A stretch of DNA of 64,000 nucleotides, taken from NCBI GenBank assembly GCA_964016885.1, contig OZ024743.1, forward strand, positions 287,618,001 to 287,682,000. Direction: 5' to 3'. Every line of letters begins with the position of its first letter. The first letter of the stretch is position 1. The translations under genes and the position numbers were made by a program. Below the pieces are notes generated by a model, which searched no databases, had not been told where the DNA came from, and worked only from the letters and a program-made list of their open reading frames with translations. Positions 1-62,457 of the stretch are shown here, piece by piece. This DNA comes from Eledone cirrhosa. Taxonomy: Eukaryota.

Positions 1-100
1 TGGCTGGACTAAAAAGTCACACTTGTTCAGCGCATCGGTAGGGGTTCTCCTACATGGATATAAAGTAGTGGCCGTACTCGAAAACGAGTTGGCAGCCACT
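1..100 (+). mobile_element. 3' end of RTE-derived non-autonomous SINE, followed by (ATGT)n tail
   Basis: Near-identical to ~60923-61022 and ~6884-6980; ends GTACTCGAAAACGAGTTGGCAGCCAC + (ATGT)n. Confidence 0.85.
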
Positions 101-183
101 ATGTATGTATGTATGTATGTATGTATGTATGTATGTATGTATGTATGTATGTATGTATGTATGTATGTATGTATGTATGTATG

Positions 184-921
184 TTATCTCTTTCTCTTAA
201 TTTCGAGTATATTTTTTTGACCGGCTACCTTCCTGGTGGCAAGGTTGTAAAAGAAAAGAAATTGACATCCCTTGAATCGCAAGAATGTTTTGAAAATTTT
301 GAAGGTGCCAGCTATCCCAGCCATTTGTAGACTATGAATTAGGGAGCTGCGTTCTTTGTCCGCAAATCCAAGTTCAGTCATACTTTGGTCCAAGCGGGTT
401 AGTATATAACCCGTAGCTCCAATAATGATGGGTATGAAGCTAAAGGTGTATCTTGGATACTGGATTTGTAAACTCCTCATCAATGGTCCGTAGATGTCCT
501 CCTTCTCCTGTATTTTTCTGACAACGTTTACATCAAGTGGGCAGCTGATCTCCACAACAGAACACGTTTTCAATGTGGGGTCCCAAACAACAATATCAGG
601 CCGGTTGTGCTTTAATTTGGTGGCAGTTTTTATTTTCAGGTTCCACCAGTATTCCTTAGTGCCATCTGTCTCAATATATTCTTCCTCGTTTGTTAATTTT
701 GTTTTCCGAAGTGCGTTCCAGATGGTTCTAGCTATCCCATCGTGTCTCATGGGGAGGTAGTAGCGAGATGACATTATTTCGCAGCTGGCAACAATGTGGC
801 TTACATCCTCGATCTTTGTTTTACATAGCCTACATTTATTGTCAGCTGATGGCCCTCCCCTTTTGTGCAGCAGATATTTGGTAGGGAGTTCTTGTTCCTG
901 TATTGCATAGAGATATCCCTC
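184..921 (-). mobile_element. 5'-truncated R4/Dong-like (R2-group) non-LTR retrotransposon: CCHC finger plus restriction-like endonuclease
   Basis: Minus frame reads [10 protein letters not shown]...CRLCKTKIEDVSHIVASC...RHD...NRPDIVVWD...VVEISCP, a PD-(D/E)xK-type RLE; (ATGT)n on both sides. Confidence 0.85.
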
Positions 922-1702: not shown

Positions 1703-4700
1703 CGCGCGGGGACATAGAAATAATCGGGCTGGATGCCCGATCACAGTTAAACCACTGGGAGAGAAGAACCCCTAGCCCTTGTCAAGGCATTCTTCTAGGA
1801 GAAGGCATCTCAGGAAACTGGGTTAACTCCGACATAAAACCTGCGGCTCAGTAGTTACCGATGATGTTGATCTTTTCTTCTTTTCGGGTTATAGCTACTG
1901 TCGCTCAGAGAGTGGGATTGGCTCAGTGCACAGTCTTTCCTCACTTAAAAAATATTCGTCACGCACAGACATTGCATGTGTGCATTAATAATTATTAATA
2001 GTGTACTATTATTATTATTATTATTATTGTTACTATTATTATTACTTTTTTTTTTCTTTTTTTTTTTCTTCCAATTCAATGATGTTCCAGAACAATATAA
2101 AAGAGATAATTGGCAATTTAGGTTCTGGAACAAAAAAGATAATTGGCAATAAGGGCCCGCTCGTCATCGTGCCATTGTAATAGAGCCAAACAAGGCATTT
2201 AGTCTTGGCTGCTGGAACGTACGGACGCTGCTTGACAGGGATTCCTTGGAGCGTCCTGAACGAAGGACCGCTCTTGTTGCAAAGGAGCTTTGACGTTACG
2301 ATCTTGACATCGTGGCTTTATCTGAGACGAGGTTAGCTGGAGATGGTCATCTTACAGAATTTTGTGGAGAATATACATTCTTCTGGAAAGGAAGAGATGA
2401 AGGAACCAGAAGAGAGGCTGGGGTAGGATTTGCTGTTAAGACTGTACTTGTGAATAAATTAGAAGAATTCCCAGTAGGGATTAGTGAGAGTCTTATGTCC
2501 ATGAGAATTCCGCTGGACAGAGGAAGATATGCGACCCTGGTGAGTGTGTATGCTCCAACTATGAATTCTGTCGATGAAGAAAAAGTGTCCTTTTACCATG
2601 CCTTGAAAGGTGTTTTAAGAAATATCCCTCAGGCAGACAAAGTCATCGTGCTTGGTGACTTTAATGCTAGAGTGGGTAGAGATTTTAACACATGGAATGT
2701 AATCGGAAGGCATGGGGTGGGAAAGTGTAATAACAATGGTATGCTCCTGCTGCAGATGTGTGAGGAGCTGGATCTGTGTGTTACCAACACCTTGTTCCAA
2801 CAAAAGAACACATTCAAGACCACATGGATGCATCCTGCATCTAAGGAATGGCATCTTTTGGACTACATCTTAGTCAGGATGCGTGACAGACAGGATGTGC
2901 AGTGTGTTCGTGCTCTTCGTGGAGCTGAGTGCTGGACGGACCACCGCCTGGTACGCGCAAAAGTGAAACTAATCACTAAACGTAAAATCCGGGCTCCTGG
3001 TGTTGCCCTACCCAAAAGATTGAATGCTGCTCGTCTTAAGGATAGAAATGTGAAGAGGACATTGGAAGAAGAGATGCAGGCTGCAGATCTTGGTAAGGAT
3101 TGGCCGACCCTTAAAAAGTCGGTTTATGATGTAGGCAGGCGTGTTCTGGGATTGGTGCAGAGAAAACATCAGGACTGGTTTAATGAGAATGATGTACATA
3201 TAGAAGACTTGTTGGCTGATAAGAGGCGTGCTCTGTCACGCTACTTGACGGCAAAACCACAGGAGAGGAATACGTTGCATGAGGAACTCAAGGATGTAAA
3301 ATCACGTGTTAGGCGGAGTCTTTCTCAGATGAAGGATCAGTGGTGGAGTGAGAAGGCTGGTGAGATACAAACTGCGTCAGATTCCAATAACACAAAGCTG
3401 TTGTACAGTCTCTTGCGTGAGGTTTATGGACCGTCTTCTTCTCTGGTGACACCGCTTCGCAGCAAGGATGGCAAAGAACTTCTTCGTGACTCACAAGGAA
3501 TTCTACGAAGGTGGCAAGAGCACTTTGATGATCTCTTGAATCAGCCGTTTGTCGTCAGTGAAGATTTCCTCAATCTCATTCCAGAAAGTCCTGTGAAAGT
3601 AGCTCTCGCAGAACCTCCGACGCTTGTGGAGGTTGCAGTGGCTATTTCGAAGCTGAACAGTGGAAGATCTCCAGGTATGGATGGCATACATGCTGAGTTC
3701 CTACAATATGGTGGTGAGAGACTCCTGCAACATCTTCACTCTTTGTTTGGCAGGATATGGGCTAATGAATCCGTACCTGAGGACTGGAGAGATGCAGTAA
3801 TGGTGGTCTTGTACAAGGGAAAGGGTAACAGGAATGATTGTGGGAACTACAGAGGAATATCATTGCTTTCTGTCGTAGGGAAAGTTTTATGTAGGGTGCT
3901 TCTGGACCGTCTGCTGACACACATTGTAGATTGTGTTCTTCCTGAAAGTCAATCTGGTTTTCGTGCTGAACGCGGCACTACTGATATGATCTTCTCAGCT
4001 AGACAGCTCCAGGAGAAGTGCATGGAACAAGGCTTGGATCTGTATCAGGCTTTTGTCGATCTGACAAAAGCTTTCGATACTGTTAACAGAGATGCATTAT
4101 GGAAGGTTCTCCAGAAACTTGGTTGCCCTGATAAGTTCATTGCCGTAGTTAGGTCTTTCCATGACGACATGAAGGCTTGGGTTAATGTCGGAGGTAACAT
4201 GTCGGAGCCTATCTCAGTAAAAAATGGAGTGAAACAGGGGATATTCCAGCACCGACCCTGTTTGCCATATACTTTGTAATGGTTTTCTGTATTGCATTCA
4301 GGAATTGCGAGCATGGTGTTTACATCCGATATCGAACCTCAGGCAGCGTATTTAACATCAGGCGCTTTGCTGCAAAGACAAAAGTATTTACATCAATCAT
4401 AAGAGACCTCTTGTATGCAGATGATTGCGATCTTGTAGCGCACACAGAGAGTGAAATGCAGCACATTTTGAATGCATTTTCTGACGCTTGCACTGCTCTA
4501 GGATTGACTGTCAGTCTCAAGAAAACCGTCGTCATGTACCAACCTGCCCCCGGTAAGCAGTACACTGAACCAAATATCTATGTGTATGGTAAACGACTTG
4601 GAGTGGTTGATCAGTTTGTCTACCTGGGAAGCACTGTCAATCGATACAGCAACCTTGACAGTGAAATCTCACTTAGGATTAGGAAAGCAAGTGATGCTTT

Positions 4701-5960
4701 CGGAAAGCTAGAAAGGCGACTCTGGGGTCGGCGAGACATATGCAGGAGGACAAAGGTAAAGGTGTACAGGGCATGTGTGCTCTCTTGTTTTCTTTATACC
4801 TGCGAGACTTGGGTCACATATCGACACCACCTTAAGCAATTGGAGCGTTTCCATCAGATGTGTCTCAGACGGATCCATGGCGTTCACTGGAGGGACCACA
4901 TCAGTGATGTCGAGATTTTGGAAAGCTCTATGTGTGACAGTATAGAAGCTCTTGTGCTTAAGCAACGACTCCGTTGGAGTGGTCACGTTGCCAGGATGAA
5001 GGATTCTAGAATACCAAAACAACTCTTTTATGGAGAGTTGCTTAAAGGAAAACGACCGCCACATAAACTAAAAAAGAGGTATAAGGATTCCTTGAAAGCC
5101 GCTCTGAAAGACGCTAACATCTCTGCTGATACATGGGAAAATATTGCTGCTGATCGTAATAAATGGAGAAAGACTGTATATGAGGGAAAAGTTGCCTTTG
5201 AGGCATCTCGAATCGCATACGAGATAGTAAAGCGGGATGTGAGGAAGGGCATTGCTGTTAAACTTCCAGACGGCGAGGGTCCTCCTATGGTGCTGACATG
5301 CAGCGTCTGTGCGAGACTCTGCCTAAGCAAAGCTGGACTCGAAAGTCATCTTCGCAGTCATAGAGTAAGATCAGTGGTTGACTACCAGGCTGCTGTTGGA
5401 GATGCTACTCATAATGCTTGCCAAACATGTGGTAGAGAATGTAAATCAGCAGGAGGGCTCAAGCGACATGCAAAAGTACACGAACTCCAACCACAGCCGA
5501 CTATTCCCAGTGAATGTTTTGGTTGCCGACTCTGTGCAAGACATTTTAGATCATTGGCTGGGCTAAAAAGCCACATTCGATCGCAGCGCTGTTAGTTGCT
5601 ATCGTGTGTGTGTGTGTGTATAGATATGTTTGTGCGTGAGCGTGTATGTGTATATATGTATGTATATGTATATTATTATTGTTGTTGTCGTTATTATTAT
5701 TGTTGTTATTATTATTATTGTTATTAATGTATATGTGTGTATGTATATATGTGTGTGTGTATATATGTGTGTGTGTATGTATGTATATGTATGTGTATGT
5801 ATATATATATATATGTATATATCTATATATTTATATATTTCTTTTTTTATTTTTATTTTATTTTTTATTTATTTATTAATTTTTAATTTTTTTAATTTAT
5901 TTTATTTTTTTTTCTCCTCGTGCAATGGCCATACTCGATAACGAGGGGGCAGCCATCAGC
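1703..5960 (+). mobile_element. Near full-length RTE-clade LINE (5'UTR, APE-RT ORF, 3'UTR interrupted by simple repeats at 5605-5910, (ATGT)n tail)
   Basis: 5'UTR motif CTAGGAGAAGG; single APE+RT ORF; 3' end TACTCGATAACGAG..GGCAGCCA then (ATGT)n at 5961. Confidence 0.93.
2213..5595 (+). pseudogene. RTE ORF: AP endonuclease, reverse transcriptase, three C-terminal C2H2-type zinc fingers
   Basis: WNVRTL, ALSETR, VYAPT, GDFNAR, LDY, TDH; NYRGISLL, FVDLTKAFDTV, GVKQG, LYADD. Lesions seen: TGA at 2291 and a frameshift in the G-run at ~4240. Confidence 0.93.
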
Positions 5961-6023
5961 ATGTATGTATGTATGTATGTATGTATGTATGTATGTATGT
6001 ATGTATGTATGTATGTATGTATG

Positions 6024-6482
6024 TTCTTCTGGTTTTATAAATTCACAAATTTTTTCGCAATAGAGAGAGAGTCGGTTTTTAACATAGACACAAGACTCTC
6101 TCATTGGAATTTACACAACATCAACTAGGTAGATATGTATGCATGTTTGCATGTCTGCATGTGTAGATATGGATGTTATTGTATGTGCGGATGTGTATGT
6201 TTTGAATTGTATGTGTGCATGTGTATATGCTTTGTATCTGTACATGTGTATATGCAGTTAATAGATGCAGAAGTTTTGGAATGTTTTACATATTTTTACT
6301 GTTCCATTGGATTGTACTTGTAATTCCCTAACTAGTTGTGTTCTTTCTGTTCCTGTGAAGCCTAGCTTCTCAAGATTTGTATTGAGGCAGTTACTAACAT
6401 ATCCTAGTGCCCCAATAATCACAGGCATAAATCTGAAGGTGTAATCAGGGTGGAGTATCTTCAGATTTCGCATCAGTTCTGC
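6024..6482 (-). mobile_element. 5'-truncated R4/Dong-like element (endonuclease C-terminus + ~230 bp 3'UTR), second subfamily
   Basis: [26 protein letters not shown]...GTVKICKTF is homologous to the end of the 184-774 ORF; (ATGT)n on both sides. Confidence 0.82.
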
Positions 6483-6576
6483 ATGTATGTATGTATGCAT
6501 GTATGTATGTATGTATGTATGTATGTATGTATGTATGTATGTATGTATGTATGTATGTATGTATGTATGTATGTAT

Positions 6577-6980
6577 GAGAGATGACCCCTTAGCCTTTGT
6601 CAAGGCAGAATTCTAGGAGAAGGAAAACTCTGACATAACACCTGCAACCCTGATGGTATCCAATGATGTTGACTTGTTCTTCTTTTTGGTAAATATCATC
6701 TTGGTTAAGAGAGTGGGACTGGCTTTGTGCACTGCCTTTGCTCACTATAAAAGCTTCACGGCACAGGCATTGCTTTATATCTGGAGATCTCTCTGCACTT
6801 GTCATCACAGGGTACCCTGGGCCCAGCACTATGTGTCAATAATTGTCACAAGTGTAGTGTTTGTACCAGAGTTTTCAAGTCGCTGGCTGGATTAAAAAGT
6901 CACACTCGTTCAGCGCATCGGTAGGGGTTCTACATGGATATAAAGTAGTGGCCGTACTCGAAAACGAGTTGGCAGCCACC
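6577..6980 (+). mobile_element. 5'-truncated RTE-derived SINE
   Basis: Near-identical to 60617-61022; between two (ATGT)n tracts. Confidence 0.88.
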
Positions 6981-7047
6981 ATGTATGTATGTATGTATGT
7001 ATGTATGTATGTATGTATGTATGTATGTATGTATGTATGTATGTATG

Positions 7048-7078
<31 letters not shown>

Positions 7079-7138
7079 TGTATGTATGTATATATGTAAT
7101 GTATATATGTATGTGTATGTATGTATGTGTGTGTATAT

Positions 7139-8977
7139 GTCAGGTCGCTCTTGAGTGCTACTGGTAACATGTAACCCAGTACAACATGTCTCATGGTCGG
7201 GTCATCGGCGTCGAAACGGGCAACCCCACCAAGCCTGCTTGGTGTTGAGGGTGATATTTGGACACCCTGTGTAATGAATTACAAGACACAGCAAATGGCG
7301 GAGGAACTCAGCTGTGTCAAATAGTACTTTTCTTTCCACCTGAGAGTGAAAGGCCCCCAGTTTTTATCACAACACCTTTCTAGGAGAGGGAAACTGAAAA
7401 AAACCCCGCGGCTTCGGAAGCATCCGATGATGTTGACCAGTTCTCCTTTTCGGCTAGTGTTTCCGATGCTCAAAGAGTGGGTTTGGTCAATTGCAAGGCC
7501 TTTCTCCACTTAAAAAACATTCAAAGCACAGGCATTGCTTGTTCAGGACCTGTTTCAGGTTCGTGTGGTTGGCCGTAGCACCAAACTCTATGATGAAAAA
7601 TGATGACCTTGAAGTCAATGATAATGTCCATGAGAGTCCCTCTGATTTAAAACCGCTTTATGACTCTGGTCAGTGTGTACGCTCCTACCATGTGTGCTAG
7701 TGATGATGAAAAACTAGCTTTCTACATGTCTTTGAAAGAGTTCATCCATAGTATACCTTATGCAGACAAGATTTCATCCTTGACGATTTTAATGCACGTG
7801 TTGGTAATGACTGGGAAGCTTTTGGAGTGTGATAGGCAAGCAGGGAGTGGGAAAGTGCAATAACTTTGGCCTACTTCTATTGCAGATGTTCACTGAAATG
7901 GATCTTGTCCTTGGGAACACGCTCTTCCAGCAGAAAGATACATGTAAGACAATATGGATGCATCCAGGTTCCAAGAAGTGGCACCTTATTGACTTTGTTT
8001 TAACGAGCATTGGTTCGTGTATTGCGAAGTGCGGAATGTTGGACTGACCATCGTCTGGTGCGCGCTAAGTTTCAATTTGTTATGAAGCAGAGGTTGGTCT
8101 GCGTGATAGAAAATCATGTGAGTCATTTGGAAGGCTTAGCGACCGTCTATGGTGCAGGCGAGGTATCACAATGAAGACCAACGTGAAAGTGTATGCCGCA
8201 TGTGTACTGTCAGCGTTGCTGTATGCATGTGAGACATGGGTTGCCTACAAACGGCATATCAAAAGACTGGGACGATTTCACCAGCAGTGTCTCAGAAAGA
8301 TGCTCCGTATCAAGTGGCAGATGCATGTGAGTGATGTTGAGGTCCTTGAGAGAAGTGAGTGTCAGAGCATTGAAAGTATCATCCACCAACGACGTTTGCG
8401 ATGGACTGGACACCTCTGCAGAATGGAGGACGATCGAATCCCGAAACAACTTTTGTATAGCGAGCTTTGTAAAAGTAAGAGACCACTTCACAAACCAAAG
8501 CTTCGATTCATTGAAAAAAATTGGTTTGATGGTGGCTGGCTGGGAGATAAAAGCTCTTGAAAGAGAAACTTGGCGTTGAAAGGTAAATGATGGGGTCCAT
8601 AATTTTGAGGACAGACGCATAGAGCACGAGAAAATCAAACAGGATGTGCGTAAGCAATGCCCTGGTGTATCTCTCGAAACGATCGGTGTCTCCATTGAAT
8701 TGGTGTGCCCTGAGTGTGAAAAGATTTGCTTGAGCAAATCTGGTCTCAGGAGTCACAGTCGTAGCCATGTCCAAAGAGAACCAGTGAAATATGATCTCCA
8801 CGTATGGTGAAGGTTCACAGGCAACCTGATGCAAGACCTGGGGCCAGGCAGATCCATAGTTGTCGTCAATGTGCGAAGAAGTGCATATCTCTATCAGGCT
8901 TGAAAATCCATATCCTTGCGTCACACATCTGAAACTGACAAGCGCTTGCAATACTCCTAGCAGAGTTTGCAGCCACC
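7139..8977 (+). mobile_element. Internally deleted, decayed RTE LINE (5' head, APE fragments, post-RT region, zinc finger, 3' end; RT core missing)
   Basis: [62 protein letters not shown]; 5' head matches SINE head at 60416; ends GCAGCCACC. Confidence 0.88.
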
Positions 8978-9012
8978 ATATATATATATACACATTCATA
9001 CATATAAACATA

Positions 9013-9641
<629 letters not shown>

Positions 9642-12600
9642 TTTTTGGTACATCTGAAGTAATTGATTGGTGCAACAACCTGAATAAGAAAAACAAACAA
9701 ACATTTATTCAATTTGATATTGCCAGCTACTATTCTTCTATTTCGGCTTCACTTCTCAACAATGCTCTATCTTTCGCTTTTAAATATTCTGACATCACCA
9801 CAGATGAACTTCACATCATTCTCACGGCAACAAAAACCATCTTAGAATTCAACAATGAATACTGGACTAGACTAGAGCTGAGACCTCCAACAACTTTTAT
9901 ATCACAATGGGTGCATCCGATTCATCGCAATTGACTGATTTGATTGGTATTTTTATTTTGAATTCTTTAAATCGGAAAATTCCTCAACTTCGCGGTGGAA
10001 TTTATCGTGACGATGGACTTTTTACTATCTTAAATTGCAATTTAGGTAACCTTAATATTATTAAGAACAATATACGTGATCTCTTTAACCAACATAACCT
10101 TAAAATTGAATTTGATAACAACGTCAAACTAGCTAACTTCTTGGATATATCCCTTAATCTTGACACTGGCCTATATTACCCTTACCATAAAAACAATGAG
10201 AATCTAAATTATGTTAATTTTAAATCTAACCACCCCACTAACATTAAAAATGCTATAGTTAGTAATATTGGAAAAAAGAATATCAAACCTATCATCTAAT
10301 AAAAATATCTTTGATGCTAACGCCAATTACTATAATAATGCGCTTTCTAAAGCCGGTTATCCTGATAAAATTAAATACAGTAAAGAAACCAATCCTAGAA
10401 GATCTTACAGTAAAATAATTAATTATGATCATTCCAATAACTTAAATAAAAGACCTAGATACAAAAATATAATCTGGTATAATGATCCTTTCTCTATTTC
10501 TATTAATAATAATATTCCTAAACTATTCTTTAGGGCCTTAGATAAATGCTTCCCTCCCTCACATATCTATAGTAAAATATTTAACAAACATACAATAAAA
10601 GTTTCCTATTCCACCTCCTCCAACATCTCCAACATTATCTCTAAACACAATAAAATATTAAATACTAAATCACATCCTTCCAACACTGAATGTCATAATA
10701 ATAGCAGTAGTACTCCCGACGTCATTGTTAACTTTAGGCTAGATTTTGCAAACTCAAATACGACGTCAAACGTAACTTCGTCGAATGTTCATAATACCAA
10801 TCTAAATCAGGAAACTATTATTCCTATCGTAAATAATTTCTCCAATCCAATTCCTCCTATAAATAACACTAGGTCACTTGTTAATAACTCTGTTAATTTC
10901 TCTAATCGCAATTGTAATTGCCCTGTTAAAACTAAATCTCCTCTCAATAACCATTGTCTTGAAAAAAACTTAGTCTATGAATGTAAAGTTATAACTGATA
11001 CCAATTACTTTACCTATTTCGGTTCCACTTCCACTTCCTTCAAAGTGAGATTTTATAATCACAATTCTTCTTTTAGATACCAAATTAAAAGAACTAACAC
11101 GGCACTCTCAGAACTCATATGGTCCTTGAAATACAAAAATATTAACTATAACATCTCTTGGAGGAAAGTTTATTCTGCCTCTCCCTACTTGAATGCCTCT
11201 CTATCCAGAACGTGTAATCTTTGCTTATCTGAGAAATTTACCATTATATCTAATTTAGATTCTATAATAAATAGACGCACTGATTTATTTTCTCTCTGCT
11301 TGCATAAGTTCCACAGAACATTCCATAAAGTATACAGCTAATATCTAATACTTTACTAGTTTAAAATCCTTTTTCTCAAAGGCTTATATATATATATTTC
11401 TTTAAAAATATACCCATCTTTCTACCTTATTTCAATATTATCTATTATACATTATATAATACTAGTTACTAATTCTATATCATTCTTCTTTATCACTTTC
11501 CTTTCTTCCTCTTTTCTTTTTTCTTTTTAATTTCTAACCTCTAATCTGTACTTTTTCTTCCGAACTACTTCTCAATTCTTATTATTACTCACCACAACAT
11601 ATCCACTCTTCCATCTTTCTTCATATCATTGGCCATAAAAAATATTATTATTACCTTTCAAATACATTATAGTATTACCTTTAATAATCCTTCGTAAACA
11701 TAAACATTTTTTTGACGTTAGATTTTTCCTCCTTAGTTCCTTATTTCTTCCTTTCATGCTCGTTTGACTTTTACATATTACATATTACAATACATAAAAA
11801 CAAACTTAAACCCTAACTAATCTCCTTTATTATATTATATTATTACCATTAGAAAATATTTCGTAAACATATATATTTTGATGTTAGATTCTTTTCTTCC
11901 TTAAACATTATTTTCTTCTTTGCTTTCTGCGCTCATTTGTAAACAAACTATTTACATATATTACGCACACATATTACGTTATATAAATACAAACTTAAAC
12001 ACTAACTAATTCCTCTAAATTCATAACTCATCCACTCTTCTACTTCTTTTCACATTATATCCTTAATAACATTAATATTTTTATTTTAATAATACATATT
12101 AACAATTTCTTTTCCTCGCACATATTATTAAACCCTTCAATATACAAACCTTAATTTAATATTATTCTTAACCCCATTTTTCTCTTCATCAACTTTTAAT
12201 TTCAAATTCTTTAAAATTATCTATTATCTTCCAACGGCTTTTTAACCTCTCTCTGTGAGACAATATATATTTTTCTCAGTTGTAAAGGTTATCTCTCTCT
12301 CTCTATCACCCATCTCTCCCCCTATCTCACCCTTCCTTCTTATACTCCTCCCCCACCATTCTTTACTCTCATCTCCTCCTCTTTCTCACCCTTACCAACC
12401 CCCCTCACTTTTTCCCAATATCACACATCAATCTTAAATTATTTTTCATATGTTGATTTAAAACTTCACCATTCACAAGTGTTTTTTTAGCCTTCATATC
12501 ATGTATCCCTATTTTATCTGATGAAAACGCAGATGTCATCTCATGATGATATTTGTTTTTGAAATGCGCATAATAAAATACTTGGAACTCTTTTAACCAT

Positions 12601-59622: not shown

Positions 59623-59905
59623 TGGTATATGTATACATTTGTATATGTACGGAATGGCCTTTCTTTCAAACATGTTATATCTAAAACACGACTGTGTTCC
59701 TGTTTGATGATTTTAGTTAAGGACTTTTCGTTTTTCTTCATTACTTTATGCTTAATTTGGAATAGTAGCTTCCTTAAATCTACGTGTGTATTAACGTTTC
59801 GAAGCCTTCACAGTTCTATCCATGGTCATACTAATGGTTTATTGATCACGTGCTTAGCAAATGTTGTAATAATATATGTATGCATGCATGTATGTATGTA
59901 TGTAT

Positions 59906-60324
59906 GTTCTTCTGGTTTTATAATTTCACAAAGTTTTACCAATAGAGAGAGAGTCGGTTTCTAACAGACACAAGACTTTCTCATTGGAATGTACACAACA
60001 TCAACTAGGTAGATATGTATGTATGTATGCATGCATGTGTAGATATGGATGTTATTGTATGTGTGGATGTGTATGTTTTGAGTTGCATGTGTGCATGTGT
60101 ATATGCTTTGTATCTTTATATGTGAATATGCAGTTATTAGATGCAACATTTTTGGAATGTTTTACATATTTTTACTGTTCCATTAATGGATTGTACTTGT
60201 AGTTTCCTAACTAGTTGTGCTCGTTCTGTTCCTGTGAATCCTAGTTTCTCAAGATTTGTATTGAGGCAGTTACTAACATTTCCCAGTGCCCCAACAATCA
60301 CAGGCATAAATCTGAAGGTGTAAT
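59906..60324 (-). mobile_element. 5'-truncated R4/Dong-like element, same subfamily as 6024-6482
   Basis: Aligns end-to-end with 6024-6445; same 3' end ..ACCAGAAGAAC|ATAC; (ATGT)n on both sides. Confidence 0.85.
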
Positions 60325-60415
60325 TATGTATGTATGTATGTATGTATGTATGTATGTATGTATGTATGTATGTATGTATGTATGTATGTATGTATGTATG
60401 TATGTATGTATGTAT

Positions 60416-61022
60416 GTCAGGTCACCAGTTGGTGCTACTGGTAACATGTATCCCAGTACAACATGTCTCATGGCCGGGTCGTTGGCGGCTAAACTGGCAA
60501 CCCCACCAAGGTTTCTTGGTGAGGAGGGTGACTTTGGACATCCTGCATGACTAAAAAAAAAACCTGTCAAAGGGCAAAGGAGCTCTTAAGAGTCAATGGC
60601 CATCCAAAATCACCGGGAGAGATGACCCCTTAGCCTTTGTCAAGGCAGAATTCTAGGAGAAGGAAAACTCTGATATAACACCTGCAACCCTGATGGTATC
60701 CAATGATGTTGACTTGTTCTTCTCTTTGGTAAATATCATCTTGGTTAAGAGAGTGGGACTGGCTTTGTGCAGTGCCTTTGCTCCTATAAAAGCTTCACGG
60801 CACAGGCATTGCTTTATATCTGGAGATCTCTCTGCACCTATCGTCACATGGTACCATGGGCCCAGCACTATGTGTCAATAATTGTCACAAGTGTAGTGTT
60901 TGTACCAGAGTTTTCAAGTCGCTGGCTGGACTAAAAAGTCACACTCGTTCAGCGCATCGGTAGGAGTTCTCCTACATGGATATAAAGAAGTGGCCATACT
61001 CGAAAACGAGTTGGCAGCCACC
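60416..61022 (+). mobile_element. Full-length (~607 bp) bipartite RTE-derived SINE
   Basis: 5' part homologous to RTE 5'UTRs (7139-7540, 1755-1975); 3' part carries a zinc-finger remnant and the RTE 3' stem-loop; (ATGT)n on both sides. Confidence 0.9.
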
Positions 61023-61088
61023 ATGTATGTATGTATGTATGTATGTATGTATGTATGTATGTATGTATGTATGTATGTATATATGTAT

Positions 61089-62100
61089 GTCAGGTCACCA
61101 GTTGGTGCTACTGGTAACATGTATCCCAGTACAACCTGTCTCATGGCCGGGTCGTTGGCGGCTAAACTGGCAACCCCACCAAGGTTTCTTGGTGAGGAGG
61201 GTGACTTTGGACATCCTGCAGGACTAAAAACAAAACCTGTCAAAGGGCAAAGGAGCTCTTAAGAGTCAATGGCCATCCAAAATCACCGGGAGAGATGACC
61301 TCTTAGCCTTTGTCAAGGCAGAATTCTAGGAGAAGGAAAACTGATATAACACCTGCAACCCTGATGGCATCTAATGATGTTGACTTGTTCTTCTTTTTGG
61401 TAAGTATAATCTTGGTTAAGAGAGTGGGACTGGCTTTGTGCAGTGCCTTTGCTCACTATAAAAGCTTCACGGCACAGGGATTGCTTTATATCTGGAGATC
61501 TCTCTGCACTTGTCGTCACATGGTACCATGGGCCCAGCACTATGTATCAATAATTGTCACAAGTGTAGTGTTTGTACCAGAGTTTTCAAGTCGCTGGCTG
61601 GACTAAAAAGTCACACTCGTTCAGCGCATCGGTGGGGTTCTCCTGTAGCAGTGAATAAAATGTATTTTCCTTCTGCGGAGGAATGGTGTTACGGAGGTAA
61701 GTTGGCTGAAGTGTGAGCCAATCAAAACCTTCGGCGCACTAATTCGACTGTCCAGAACTACGTCACCAGTGTGAGCGGAGGTGACCAAGAGAGTCATTAG
61801 TCTACACGCACCTCTCTTATCGACAAGACCAGGCTACACTCATCGCTGCTAACAACATCTCCATCTTGCAATGAAGCGGACCAAGCTACATCCTACACAT
61901 GTAGATACGACCTGTACCTAATGTATCCGTTCAACATGTACGACTAATAAATAGAGTTACAACATCGATAATGGATTTAGTCAATGTTCTAAATGCCTTC
62001 TGATCTCTTTTATGTATATTAAGAATTGACCCTAAAACCCGTTATACTCCTACATGGATATAAAATAGTGGCCGTACTCGAAAACGAGTTGGCAGCCACC
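61089..62100 (+). mobile_element. Second full-length RTE-derived SINE, interrupted by a solo LTR
   Basis: Same 5' start GTCAGGTCACC; CSVCTRVFKSLAGLKSHTRSAH; resumes at 62047. Confidence 0.9.
61644..62046. mobile_element. Probable solo LTR (~403 bp), Gypsy-like
   Basis: Interrupts the SINE; starts TGTAGC, ends GTTATA; 4-bp TSD CTCC; CCAAT and AATAAA inside. Confidence 0.7.
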
Positions 62101-62154: not shown

Positions 62155-62457
62155 GTTCTTTTTGGTAAATATTATCTTGGTTAAGAGAGTGGGACTGGCT
62201 TTGTGCAGTGCCTTTGCTCACTATAAAAGCTTCATGGCACAGGCATTGCTTTATATCTGGAGATCTCTCTGCACTTGTTGTCACATGGTACCATGGGCCC
62301 AGCACTATGTGTCAATAATTGTCACAGGTGTAGTGTTTGTACCAGAGTTTTCAAGTCGCTGGCTGGACTAAAGTCACATTCATTCAGCGCATCGGTAGGA
62401 GTTCTCCTACATGGATATAAAGTAGTGGCCGTACTCGAAAACGAGTTGGCAGCCACC
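62155..62457 (+). mobile_element. 5'-truncated RTE-derived SINE
   Basis: Third head-to-tail copy between (ATGT)n tracts. Confidence 0.88.

Follow-up and report, generated by a model that had tools for sequence, protein, structure and literature searches.

Long interspersed nuclear elements (LINEs) of the R4/Dong group combine a reverse transcriptase (RT) with a restriction-like endonuclease and carry a divergent Myb/SANT-like domain, without fingers, at the N terminus, according to the accessible text of PMC7998251. The target of Dong is (TAA)n (PMC3812793, PMC7998251), and this holds for most of the insect, mollusk and cnidarian elements (PMC7998251). A hepatitis delta virus (HDV)-like ribozyme has been shown at the 5' end of both R4 and Dong (PMC3774820). 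Dong is one of several LINEs listed as specific for a microsatellite in the accessible parts of PMC3812793 and PMC4640811, the others being Waldo (ACAY), Mino (AC), Kibi (TC), Koshi (TTC), Togen (TG) and some HERO elements. Here, we describe a LINE that is present as three truncated copies in a 64,000-nucleotide stretch of the genome of Eledone cirrhosa (assembly GCA_964016885.1, contig OZ024743.1, positions 287,618,001 to 287,682,000 of the forward strand; referred to below as the window) and that is found in tracts of (ACAT)n. We consider it very probable that this is a young, high-copy Dong-type LINE with a restriction-like endonuclease, which inserts by target-primed reverse transcription specifically into (ACAT)n and in one orientation.

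The family itself is not new, as octopus repeat annotations list active "Dong-R4" LINEs of this size. In O. vulgaris, "Dong-R4" comprises five families with 1,129 recent insertions, 4,732,901 bp of sequence and a mean length of 4.19 kb (PMC13282606, Table 1). For O. bimaculoides, a full-length "Dong" consensus is described, together with few non-reference insertions detected by a short-read caller (PMC9115989). The string "ACAT" occurs nowhere in the accessible parts of PMC13282606, PMC8967140 and PMC9115989, and no target is stated there. An earlier annotation of the window, made from the sequence alone (the initial annotation), knew of no R4 element with this target. Full-text literature searches, with Repbase, Kojima and Fujiwara (2004) and supplements lying outside their scope, likewise returned no report of an (ACAT)n target for the R4/Dong group. 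Relative to the literature searched, (ACAT)n is new as the target of a Dong-type LINE, and the targeting of microsatellites is a known habit of the clade.

Junctions of the element with (ACAT)n

In order to assess the junctions, we counted the ACAT units in the 24 nt adjoining each element end. In 400 kb of unselected DNA taken at round coordinates, 0.23% of 24-nt windows held three or more units, and this was used as the chance level. Two subfamilies were analyzed. For subfamily 1, 3' junctions were sampled from 30 loci recovered by protein search, and 5' junctions were sampled from the 27 copies that start inside the fetched locus. At least two units were present at all 30 of the 3' junctions (three or more in 21, two in 9) and at 26 of the 27 5' junctions (three or more in 23), the latter representing many different truncation points. 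The sole 5' miss (locus L038) was traced to a BLAST offset at an internal duplication, and the true end of this copy adjoins (ACAT)n. For subfamily 2, (ACAT)n was found at 29/30 3' junctions and 17/18 5' junctions. The orientation of the element relative to the repeat was identical in every copy examined. The location of the copies in ACAT tracts, as seen in the initial annotation, was thereby confirmed.

Genome-wide counts of subfamily-1 ends agreed with these samples. Exactly CATACATA follows 1,228 of 1,652 exact 3' ends, and exactly CATACATACA precedes 91 of 315 exact full-length 5' ends. A precise phase of the 5' junction had been suggested by seven long-open reading frame (ORF) copies and was rejected on the basis of these genome-wide 5' counts. 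Many copies with non-ACAT 5' flanks, which had been named beforehand as the observation that would speak against the proposal, did not appear; the first 20 other full-length 5' ends on one contig (C1) were all preceded by (ACAT)n, with last bases that vary and with extra A or TA. At the 5' junctions of truncated copies, microhomology averaged 2.3 nt, compared with 0.83 nt by chance, and reached 2 nt or more in 12 of 24 cases, compared with approximately 19%. Unique DNA lies beyond the 5' tract in L021, L024, L043 and L044, so the tract in these loci is not the tail of an upstream copy. The median tract length at insertions was 93 nt on the 5' side and 62 nt on the 3' side, a weak difference.

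The features of the window that bear on the element are as follows (strand in parentheses).

1..100 (+): 3' end of a short interspersed nuclear element (SINE), matching positions 506-604 of the copy at 60418-61022 with 96% identity (blastn); it ends in ...GAGTTGGCAGCCACT
101..183 (+): (ATGT)21, which is both the tail of this SINE and the repeat adjoining copy 1 at its 3' end
184..921 (-): copy 1, subfamily 1, 5'-truncated; reference positions 3482-4223 of 4,223 bp, 97% identity
922..1013 (+): (ATGT)23, adjoining the 5' end of copy 1
~5905..5960 (+): short piece from the 3' end of an RT-encoding LINE, with ...GGCCATACTCGATAACGAGGGGGCAGCCATCAGC as its last bases
5961..6024 (+): (ATGT)16, the tail of the LINE fragment, which also adjoins the 3' end of copy 2
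6025..6482 (-): copy 2, subfamily 2, 5'-truncated; 75-codon C terminus and 234-nt 3' untranslated region (UTR)
6483..6577 (+): (ATGT)24, the tract at the 5' junction of copy 2, which also holds the 5' junction of the next SINE
6577..6980 (+): 5'-truncated SINE copy (positions 200-605); its (ATGT)40 tail at 6981-7140 is unoccupied
59875..59907 (+): (ATGT)8, adjoining the 3' end of copy 3; the DNA to the left of the tract is unique
59908..60324 (-): copy 3, subfamily 2, 5'-truncated; 63-codon C terminus and 3' UTR
60325..60417 (+): (ATGT)23, adjoining the 5' end of copy 3 and continuing up to where a SINE begins
60418..61022 (+): full-length SINE, 5' CAGGTCACCAGTTGG... and 3' ...GGCAGCCACC, with an (ATGT)n tail at 61023-61090
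61091-61644, 62047-62100 and 62156-62457: further SINE copies

All three inserts are on the minus strand, with plus-strand (ATGT)n on either side; read in the element's own sense, this repeat is (ACAT)n. Their truncation points differ, which indicates independent insertions. The description of three copies from two subfamilies, separately truncated and in the same orientation, thus held for the window. Copy 1 has a stop-free translation of 245 amino acids that comprises a CCHC finger (Pfam zf-RVT, E = 3.7e-6), a PD..E..K-type nuclease block and a C-terminal tail; the frame reads on because the stop codon is mutated. Its 3' end reads ...GAGATAA, followed by CATACATA. Copies 2 and 3 constitute the second subfamily. 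Their C-terminal 70 amino acids are 49% identical to those of copy 1 (E = 1e-20), the 3' UTR is longer, and both 3' ends read ...CCAGAAGA, followed by ACATACAT. Copy 3 has no SINE or LINE tail on its 3' side, and its 5' tract adjoins the 5' end of the full-length SINE. The stretch from 5905 to 7140 forms an array in which the LINE fragment, (ATGT)16, the antisense subfamily-2 copy, (ATGT)24, the SINE and (ATGT)40 follow one another.

Several further observations were made at these tracts. Young copies are often found directly downstream or upstream of older, truncated copies, which may belong to either subfamily, with only a short (ACAT)n between them (L014, L017, L019, L030, L031, L235-L239 and L241); such head-to-tail arrays would arise when one tract is used repeatedly. 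Locus L034 contains two identical units (3270-4930 and 8300-9900), each with a 634-nt truncated copy and identical flanks, approximately 5 kb apart, and this pair is a local segmental duplication rather than two insertions. The 3' flank of the element in L021 (1380-1485) is itself a repeat that elsewhere continues differently where (ACAT)n starts, and it may be a 5'-truncated copy of another element with its own junction in the repeat. The 3' UTR of subfamily 2 (window 6100-6260 and 59990-60130) includes a degenerate ACAT-like stretch (ACATCCATATCTACACATGCA... in the sense orientation), which might serve in target pairing or be a relic of an internal tract.

The full-length element and its relatives

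The initial annotation had suggested a search for full-length copies with the protein encoded at 184-921, and this yielded copies of 4,223 bp. The full-length element consists of a 632-nt 5' UTR, a single ORF of 1,169 amino acids (ending ...TFLRFKG) and an 81-nt 3' UTR that ends in ...AAGAGAAAGAGAAAA. Pfam analysis of the protein identified RVT_1 at residues 479-726 (E = 3e-24) and zf-RVT at 934-999 (E = 2.2e-5). These were the only Pfam matches, and none to an apurinic/apyrimidinic (AP) endonuclease was found in the 1,169 residues. In an alignment of 37 homologues, the CCHC, RH(D/N), NRPD, D/E and K positions are conserved. The order of RT, CCHC finger and C-terminal restriction-like (PD..D/E..K) endonuclease within one ORF is that of R4/Dong elements, and the assignment to LINEs with a restriction-like endonuclease made from copy 1 is upheld by the two domains and the conserved nuclease residues. 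Among PDB entries, the best sequence matches were the R2 structures 9nl3, 9dou and 8gh6 (E = 1.5e-28 to 1.9e-16), which align over the RT region only. The nearest named protein is from Argonauta hians.

No Cys/His motif was found upstream of the RT, and Pfam analysis of the 37 homologues identified no N-terminal family. The N-terminal block is predicted to form three helices (residues 15-27, 35-46 and 54-67) with a predicted local distance difference test (pLDDT) score of 92-95. Identity to the element in this domain is 40% for L145 and 33% for L148, two relatives described below, and 11-29% for the other rows of the alignment.

In the 3.0-Gb genome, the 245-residue piece gave 46,622 first-look candidates, and the 150 that were scored were all 96-100% identical. 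Subfamily 2 gave 2,761 first-look candidates, with copies 93-95% identical to the window copy. Full-length copies of subfamily 1 are 99-99.9% identical to one another, indicating that this subfamily is young; copy 1 of the window, at 97% identity, is by this measure older than the young full-length copies. Contigs assigned to two further organism labels also contained near-identical pieces of subfamily 1, with 3 differences over 520 nt in one comparison and 1 over 360 nt in another (query L021:600-2850). By these matches, the young subfamily is common, almost unchanged, to related species labels.

To place the element, metagenome contigs were scanned for relatives. This revealed 365 relatives, of which 80 loci were kept and 35 reach the C terminus. 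In 18 of these 35, (TAA)n begins 60-150 nt after the ORF. In two more relatives, (TAA)n is found upstream only; L157 has it on both sides, and in L191 (3280-3400) the ORF is followed by (AAC)n. The closest relatives have other flanks: L145 has (CTTA)n on both sides (1-110 and 4800-4871), L146 has (TTAC)n at its 3' end, and L148 starts in (TACT)n (1-60). A tree was computed by a quick IQ-TREE search of 35 rows and 942 columns, in which named R4, Dong and Rex6 references are absent and the midpoint root serves for drawing only. In this tree, the element pairs with L145 (Shimodaira-Hasegawa approximate likelihood ratio test [SH-aLRT] support, 100) inside a five-member clade (support, 100). L145 is 47% identical to the element over 932 columns. 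Apart from the element's clade stands a 27-row clade (support, 90) in which all labelled rows but one are flanked by (TAA)n.

Membership of the R4/Dong clade is likely on these sequence comparisons, in line with the kinship first suggested, as the wider family includes many (TAA)n-flanked elements of Dong type. The combination of (TAA)n-flanked relatives and closest relatives flanked by (TTAC)n suggests that the element probably belongs to a Dong-type lineage that was retargeted to a tetranucleotide repeat. Judging from the flanking repeats, this lineage appears to have changed its microsatellite target several times. These lineages, with (ACAT)n for the element, (TTAC)n for its sisters and (TAA)n for its cousins, make up a natural series that could serve to study how a small three-helix domain and a restriction-like nuclease read short repeats, which is relevant to present efforts to direct R2-type elements to new sites for gene insertion.

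LINE tails and a SINE at the same tracts

The initial annotation had also proposed that the element exploits sites created by another LINE and that in two window cases the host tract is directly the tail of an RTE or of its SINE. For the window, the 3' tract of copy 2 is indeed the tail of a LINE fragment and that of copy 1 the tail of a SINE. The tail-bearing LINE was assessed from the final 1.5 kb of its copies (loci L115-L144). Long copies encode an RT C terminus (YADD; RVT_1, E = 1.6e-6) and C-terminal C2H2 fingers approximately 300 nt before the tail. The tail, ...GGCCATACTCGATAACGAGGGGGCAGCCATC followed by (ATGT)n, occurs 8,446 times in the genome, compared with 0 for the control. Among 60 surveyed insertions, the 3' tract runs into an antisense LINE or SINE tail in at least 14 (12 found by script and 2 by eye), and at least six tail families are represented. 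Conversely, of the first 30 LINE tails on contig C1, chosen regardless of the element, 5 carry the element within approximately 110 nt, always antisense. In the genome as a whole, 118 ends of subfamily 1 were found at a distance of 8-38 nt from the strict tail motif, compared with 0 for the control. LINE and SINE tails thus supply the tracts for a substantial minority of insertions. The proposal that another LINE creates the sites stands for this minority only, and the SINE itself also lands there.

In the window, the 3' end of one SINE is present five times, always with an (ATGT)n tail, and one of these five tails is occupied. A separate repeat ending in ...GGTGACCTG beside (ACAT)n, provisionally termed SINE2, was discarded when alignment identified it as the 5' end of the same 605-nt SINE on the other strand. 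The 5' ends of this SINE adjoin (ATGT)n in 20 of 20 probe matches, a sample biased to ACAT-rich loci. Among the eight young copies present in the window and 40 unselected loci, six have their 5' end at (ATGT)n by the script criterion; of the remaining two, L090 has a tract 14 nt away and the copy at window position 62047 has none. Five older, diverged SINE matches were not flagged for (ATGT)n at the 5' end. The SINE lands in the same microsatellite as the Dong-like LINE, in the opposite orientation, which is a new observation. The tract is therefore a shared landing pad and is not simply made for the Dong-like element, and SINE landing in (ATGT)n gives rise to tandem SINE arrays separated by the repeat.

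Unoccupied LINE tails have a median length of 41 nt (n = 25), shorter than the summed 5' and 3' tracts at insertions (medians, 93 and 62 nt). The longer occupied tracts could reflect a preference for long tracts or growth of the tract on insertion. The 400 kb of unselected DNA contained 15 clean (ACAT)n tracts, too few for an estimate of occupancy.

Site-specific LINEs usually are confined to a few hundred targets, such as ribosomal DNA (rDNA). The element described here is a probably site-specific LINE with thousands of copies, whose target is a common microsatellite that other retrotransposons keep producing, and it offers a tangible example of a mobile element that exploits sites generated by another. 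We tentatively extend this to a broader picture, which we hold to be possible rather than probable. One (ACAT)n/(ATGT)n microsatellite would be a self-renewing landing pad shared by two unrelated retrotransposon systems in opposite orientations. A LINE and the 605-nt SINE would land there and lay down new (ATGT)n tails, and a Dong-type LINE whose target had shifted from (TTAC)n to (ACAT)n, a change of one base per unit, would live on the supply. If true, this picture would account for the thousands of copies attained by a site-specific LINE and for the formation of the SINE-repeat-LINE arrays of the window. As the insertions are hidden inside microsatellites, they are likely to be under-called by short-read methods, and the activity of the family in octopus genomes may consequently be underestimated. 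The few non-reference Dong insertions reported in the accessible text of PMC9115989 might be expected if the element lands in microsatellites.

Mechanism, alternatives and comparison with known systems

By analogy with R2-type elements, the nuclease would nick the ATGT strand of the tract. The freed 3' end could then pair with the terminal CAUA repeats of a read-through transcript and prime synthesis of the complementary DNA (cDNA). The N-terminal three-helix domain may help to read or bind the repeat, and the 5' end may be joined through short pairing of the cDNA end with the upstream repeat.

A number of findings weigh against the interpretation of the element as a Dong-type LINE specific for (ACAT)n. 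The 5' junction is not phase precise, the commonest form accounting for only 29% of full-length ends, and 9 of 30 3' flanks are mixtures of ACAT and ATAT with two clean units next to the element. No empty (preinsertion) allele was seen at the one locus studied (L021), where word depths of 10^4-10^6 in the flanks gave no trustworthy joint. The structure-atlas neighbours of the N-terminal block all belong to Myb/helix-turn-helix (HTH) families, with a score of 0.85 that is below the threshold of 0.9, and a profile of the block gave no significant match in the PDB (c-Myb, E = 7.5). An Rfam search for an HDV-like ribozyme in the 5' 800 nt of the element, at a permissive threshold, returned only microsatellite look-alikes of microRNA families. 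The clade assignment rests on the flanking repeats of unnamed relatives and on published annotation rather than on a tree with named references. Finally, specificity could rest on pairing between RNA and target rather than on the protein. With regard to the ribozyme, the same Rfam search of 12 relatives, (TAA)n-flanked ones included, found only a transfer RNA in L151 and is thus blind even to Dong-type relatives. A custom HDV-like descriptor gave 0 matches in the element, L145, L148 and L157, the intended positive control included, and in shuffled sequences, and was too strict.

The most serious alternative concerns what confers specificity. Insertion could be confined to (ACAT)n even if the protein is not sequence specific, because the CAUA repeats of a read-through transcript would pair with a nick or free end in the ATGT strand. 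The 3' junction is nearly always ...AAAA followed by CATACATA, as expected if priming needs pairing. A pairing rule also predicts both orientations, and an unrelated LINE-mobilised SINE with a complementary tail does enter the same tracts oppositely. The microhomology at 5' junctions further shows that pairing with the repeat has a part in this system. Against this alternative, the residues of the nuclease and of the CCHC finger are conserved and the N terminus has a predicted three-helix domain, as in LINEs whose target is read by the protein, and the sister lineages at (TTAC)n and (TAA)n have diverged N-terminal domains; neither point is decisive. We regard this explanation as less likely than not. 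Another alternative questions the clade rather than the target, in that the element could be an (ACAT)n-targeting member of another clade with a restriction-like endonuclease, such as HERO or NeSL-like elements. The tree holds no named R4, Dong or Rex6 sequence, some HERO families are microsatellite specific and the NeSL-related Togen targets (TG)n (PMC4640811), and Hero elements also are present in octopus genomes (PMC13282606, Table 1). However, the relatives carry (TAA)n flanks, the published target of Dong (PMC3812793, PMC7998251), and the N terminus lacks Cys/His fingers and has a predicted three-helix block, as the accessible text of PMC7998251 describes for R4/Dong. In O. vulgaris, moreover, only Dong-R4 is comparable in number and size, with 1,129 recent insertions (mean, 4.19 kb) versus 13 for Hero. 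Placement in another clade is accordingly judged improbable.

The junctions themselves admit two simpler readings, both of which fare poorly. A nonspecific LINE might carry its own (ACAT)n tail, the 5' repeats being tails of upstream copies or due to chance. Many LINEs do end in a microsatellite, as PMC9115989 states for octopus RTE elements, some 3' tracts run for only about three units before unique DNA (L012, L019, L021 and L030), and 5 of 20 sampled full-length copies lie directly downstream of the 3' end of another copy. However, more than 20 different truncation positions adjoin (ACAT)n on the 5' side, compared with a chance level of 0.23%; the tract is preceded by unique DNA in the four loci noted above (L021, L024, L043 and L044); and tracts continue into the antisense tails of other elements. 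The 5' junction counts already contradict this reading, and we give it very little credence. Segmental duplication of a few loci could likewise produce shared flanks without many independent insertions, and the two identical units with identical flanks in L034 are an instance of duplication. Nevertheless, the 60 surveyed copies are diverse in their outer flanks, tract lengths and truncation points, copies are spread over many contigs, and duplication as a general explanation is barely credible.

Site-specific insertion of a Dong-type LINE into (ACAT)n remains the reading that we favor, and on it the element compares with known systems as follows. The order of RT, CCHC finger and nuclease is shared with R2. 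R2, however, has N-terminal zinc fingers plus Myb and targets 28S rDNA, whereas the element lacks N-terminal fingers and lies in a microsatellite, so it is not an R2 element. Waldo of the R1 clade (WaldoAg1/2 and WaldoFs1) targets ACAY microsatellites, ACAT included, according to the accessible part of PMC3812793. Waldo has an AP-type endonuclease and belongs to a distant clade, whereas the element has a C-terminal restriction-like nuclease and no N-terminal AP-type endonuclease was found in it; a shared ACAT target would be convergent. The octopus "Dong-R4" families (PMC13282606, PMC8967140 and PMC9115989, as far as their accessible text goes) most likely are the same families, a likeness of size and number rather than of sequence. 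The metagenomic elements L145, L146 and L148 have the same architecture and tetranucleotide repeat flanks, at both ends in L145, and their repeat, (CTTA)n or (TTAC)n, is one base per unit off (ATAC)n, which is (ACAT)n. Dong of Bombyx mori and the Dong-like elements of insects, snails, cnidarians and ostracods share with the element a single ORF with RT, CCHC finger and restriction-like nuclease, a predicted N-terminal helical block without Cys/His fingers, orientation-specific insertion into a microsatellite, and 5'-truncated copies. Unlike Dong, which targets (TAA)n, the element has the tetranucleotide (ACAT)n as its target, and it also differs from Dong in its high copy number, with 1,652 exact 3' ends for the young subfamily alone.

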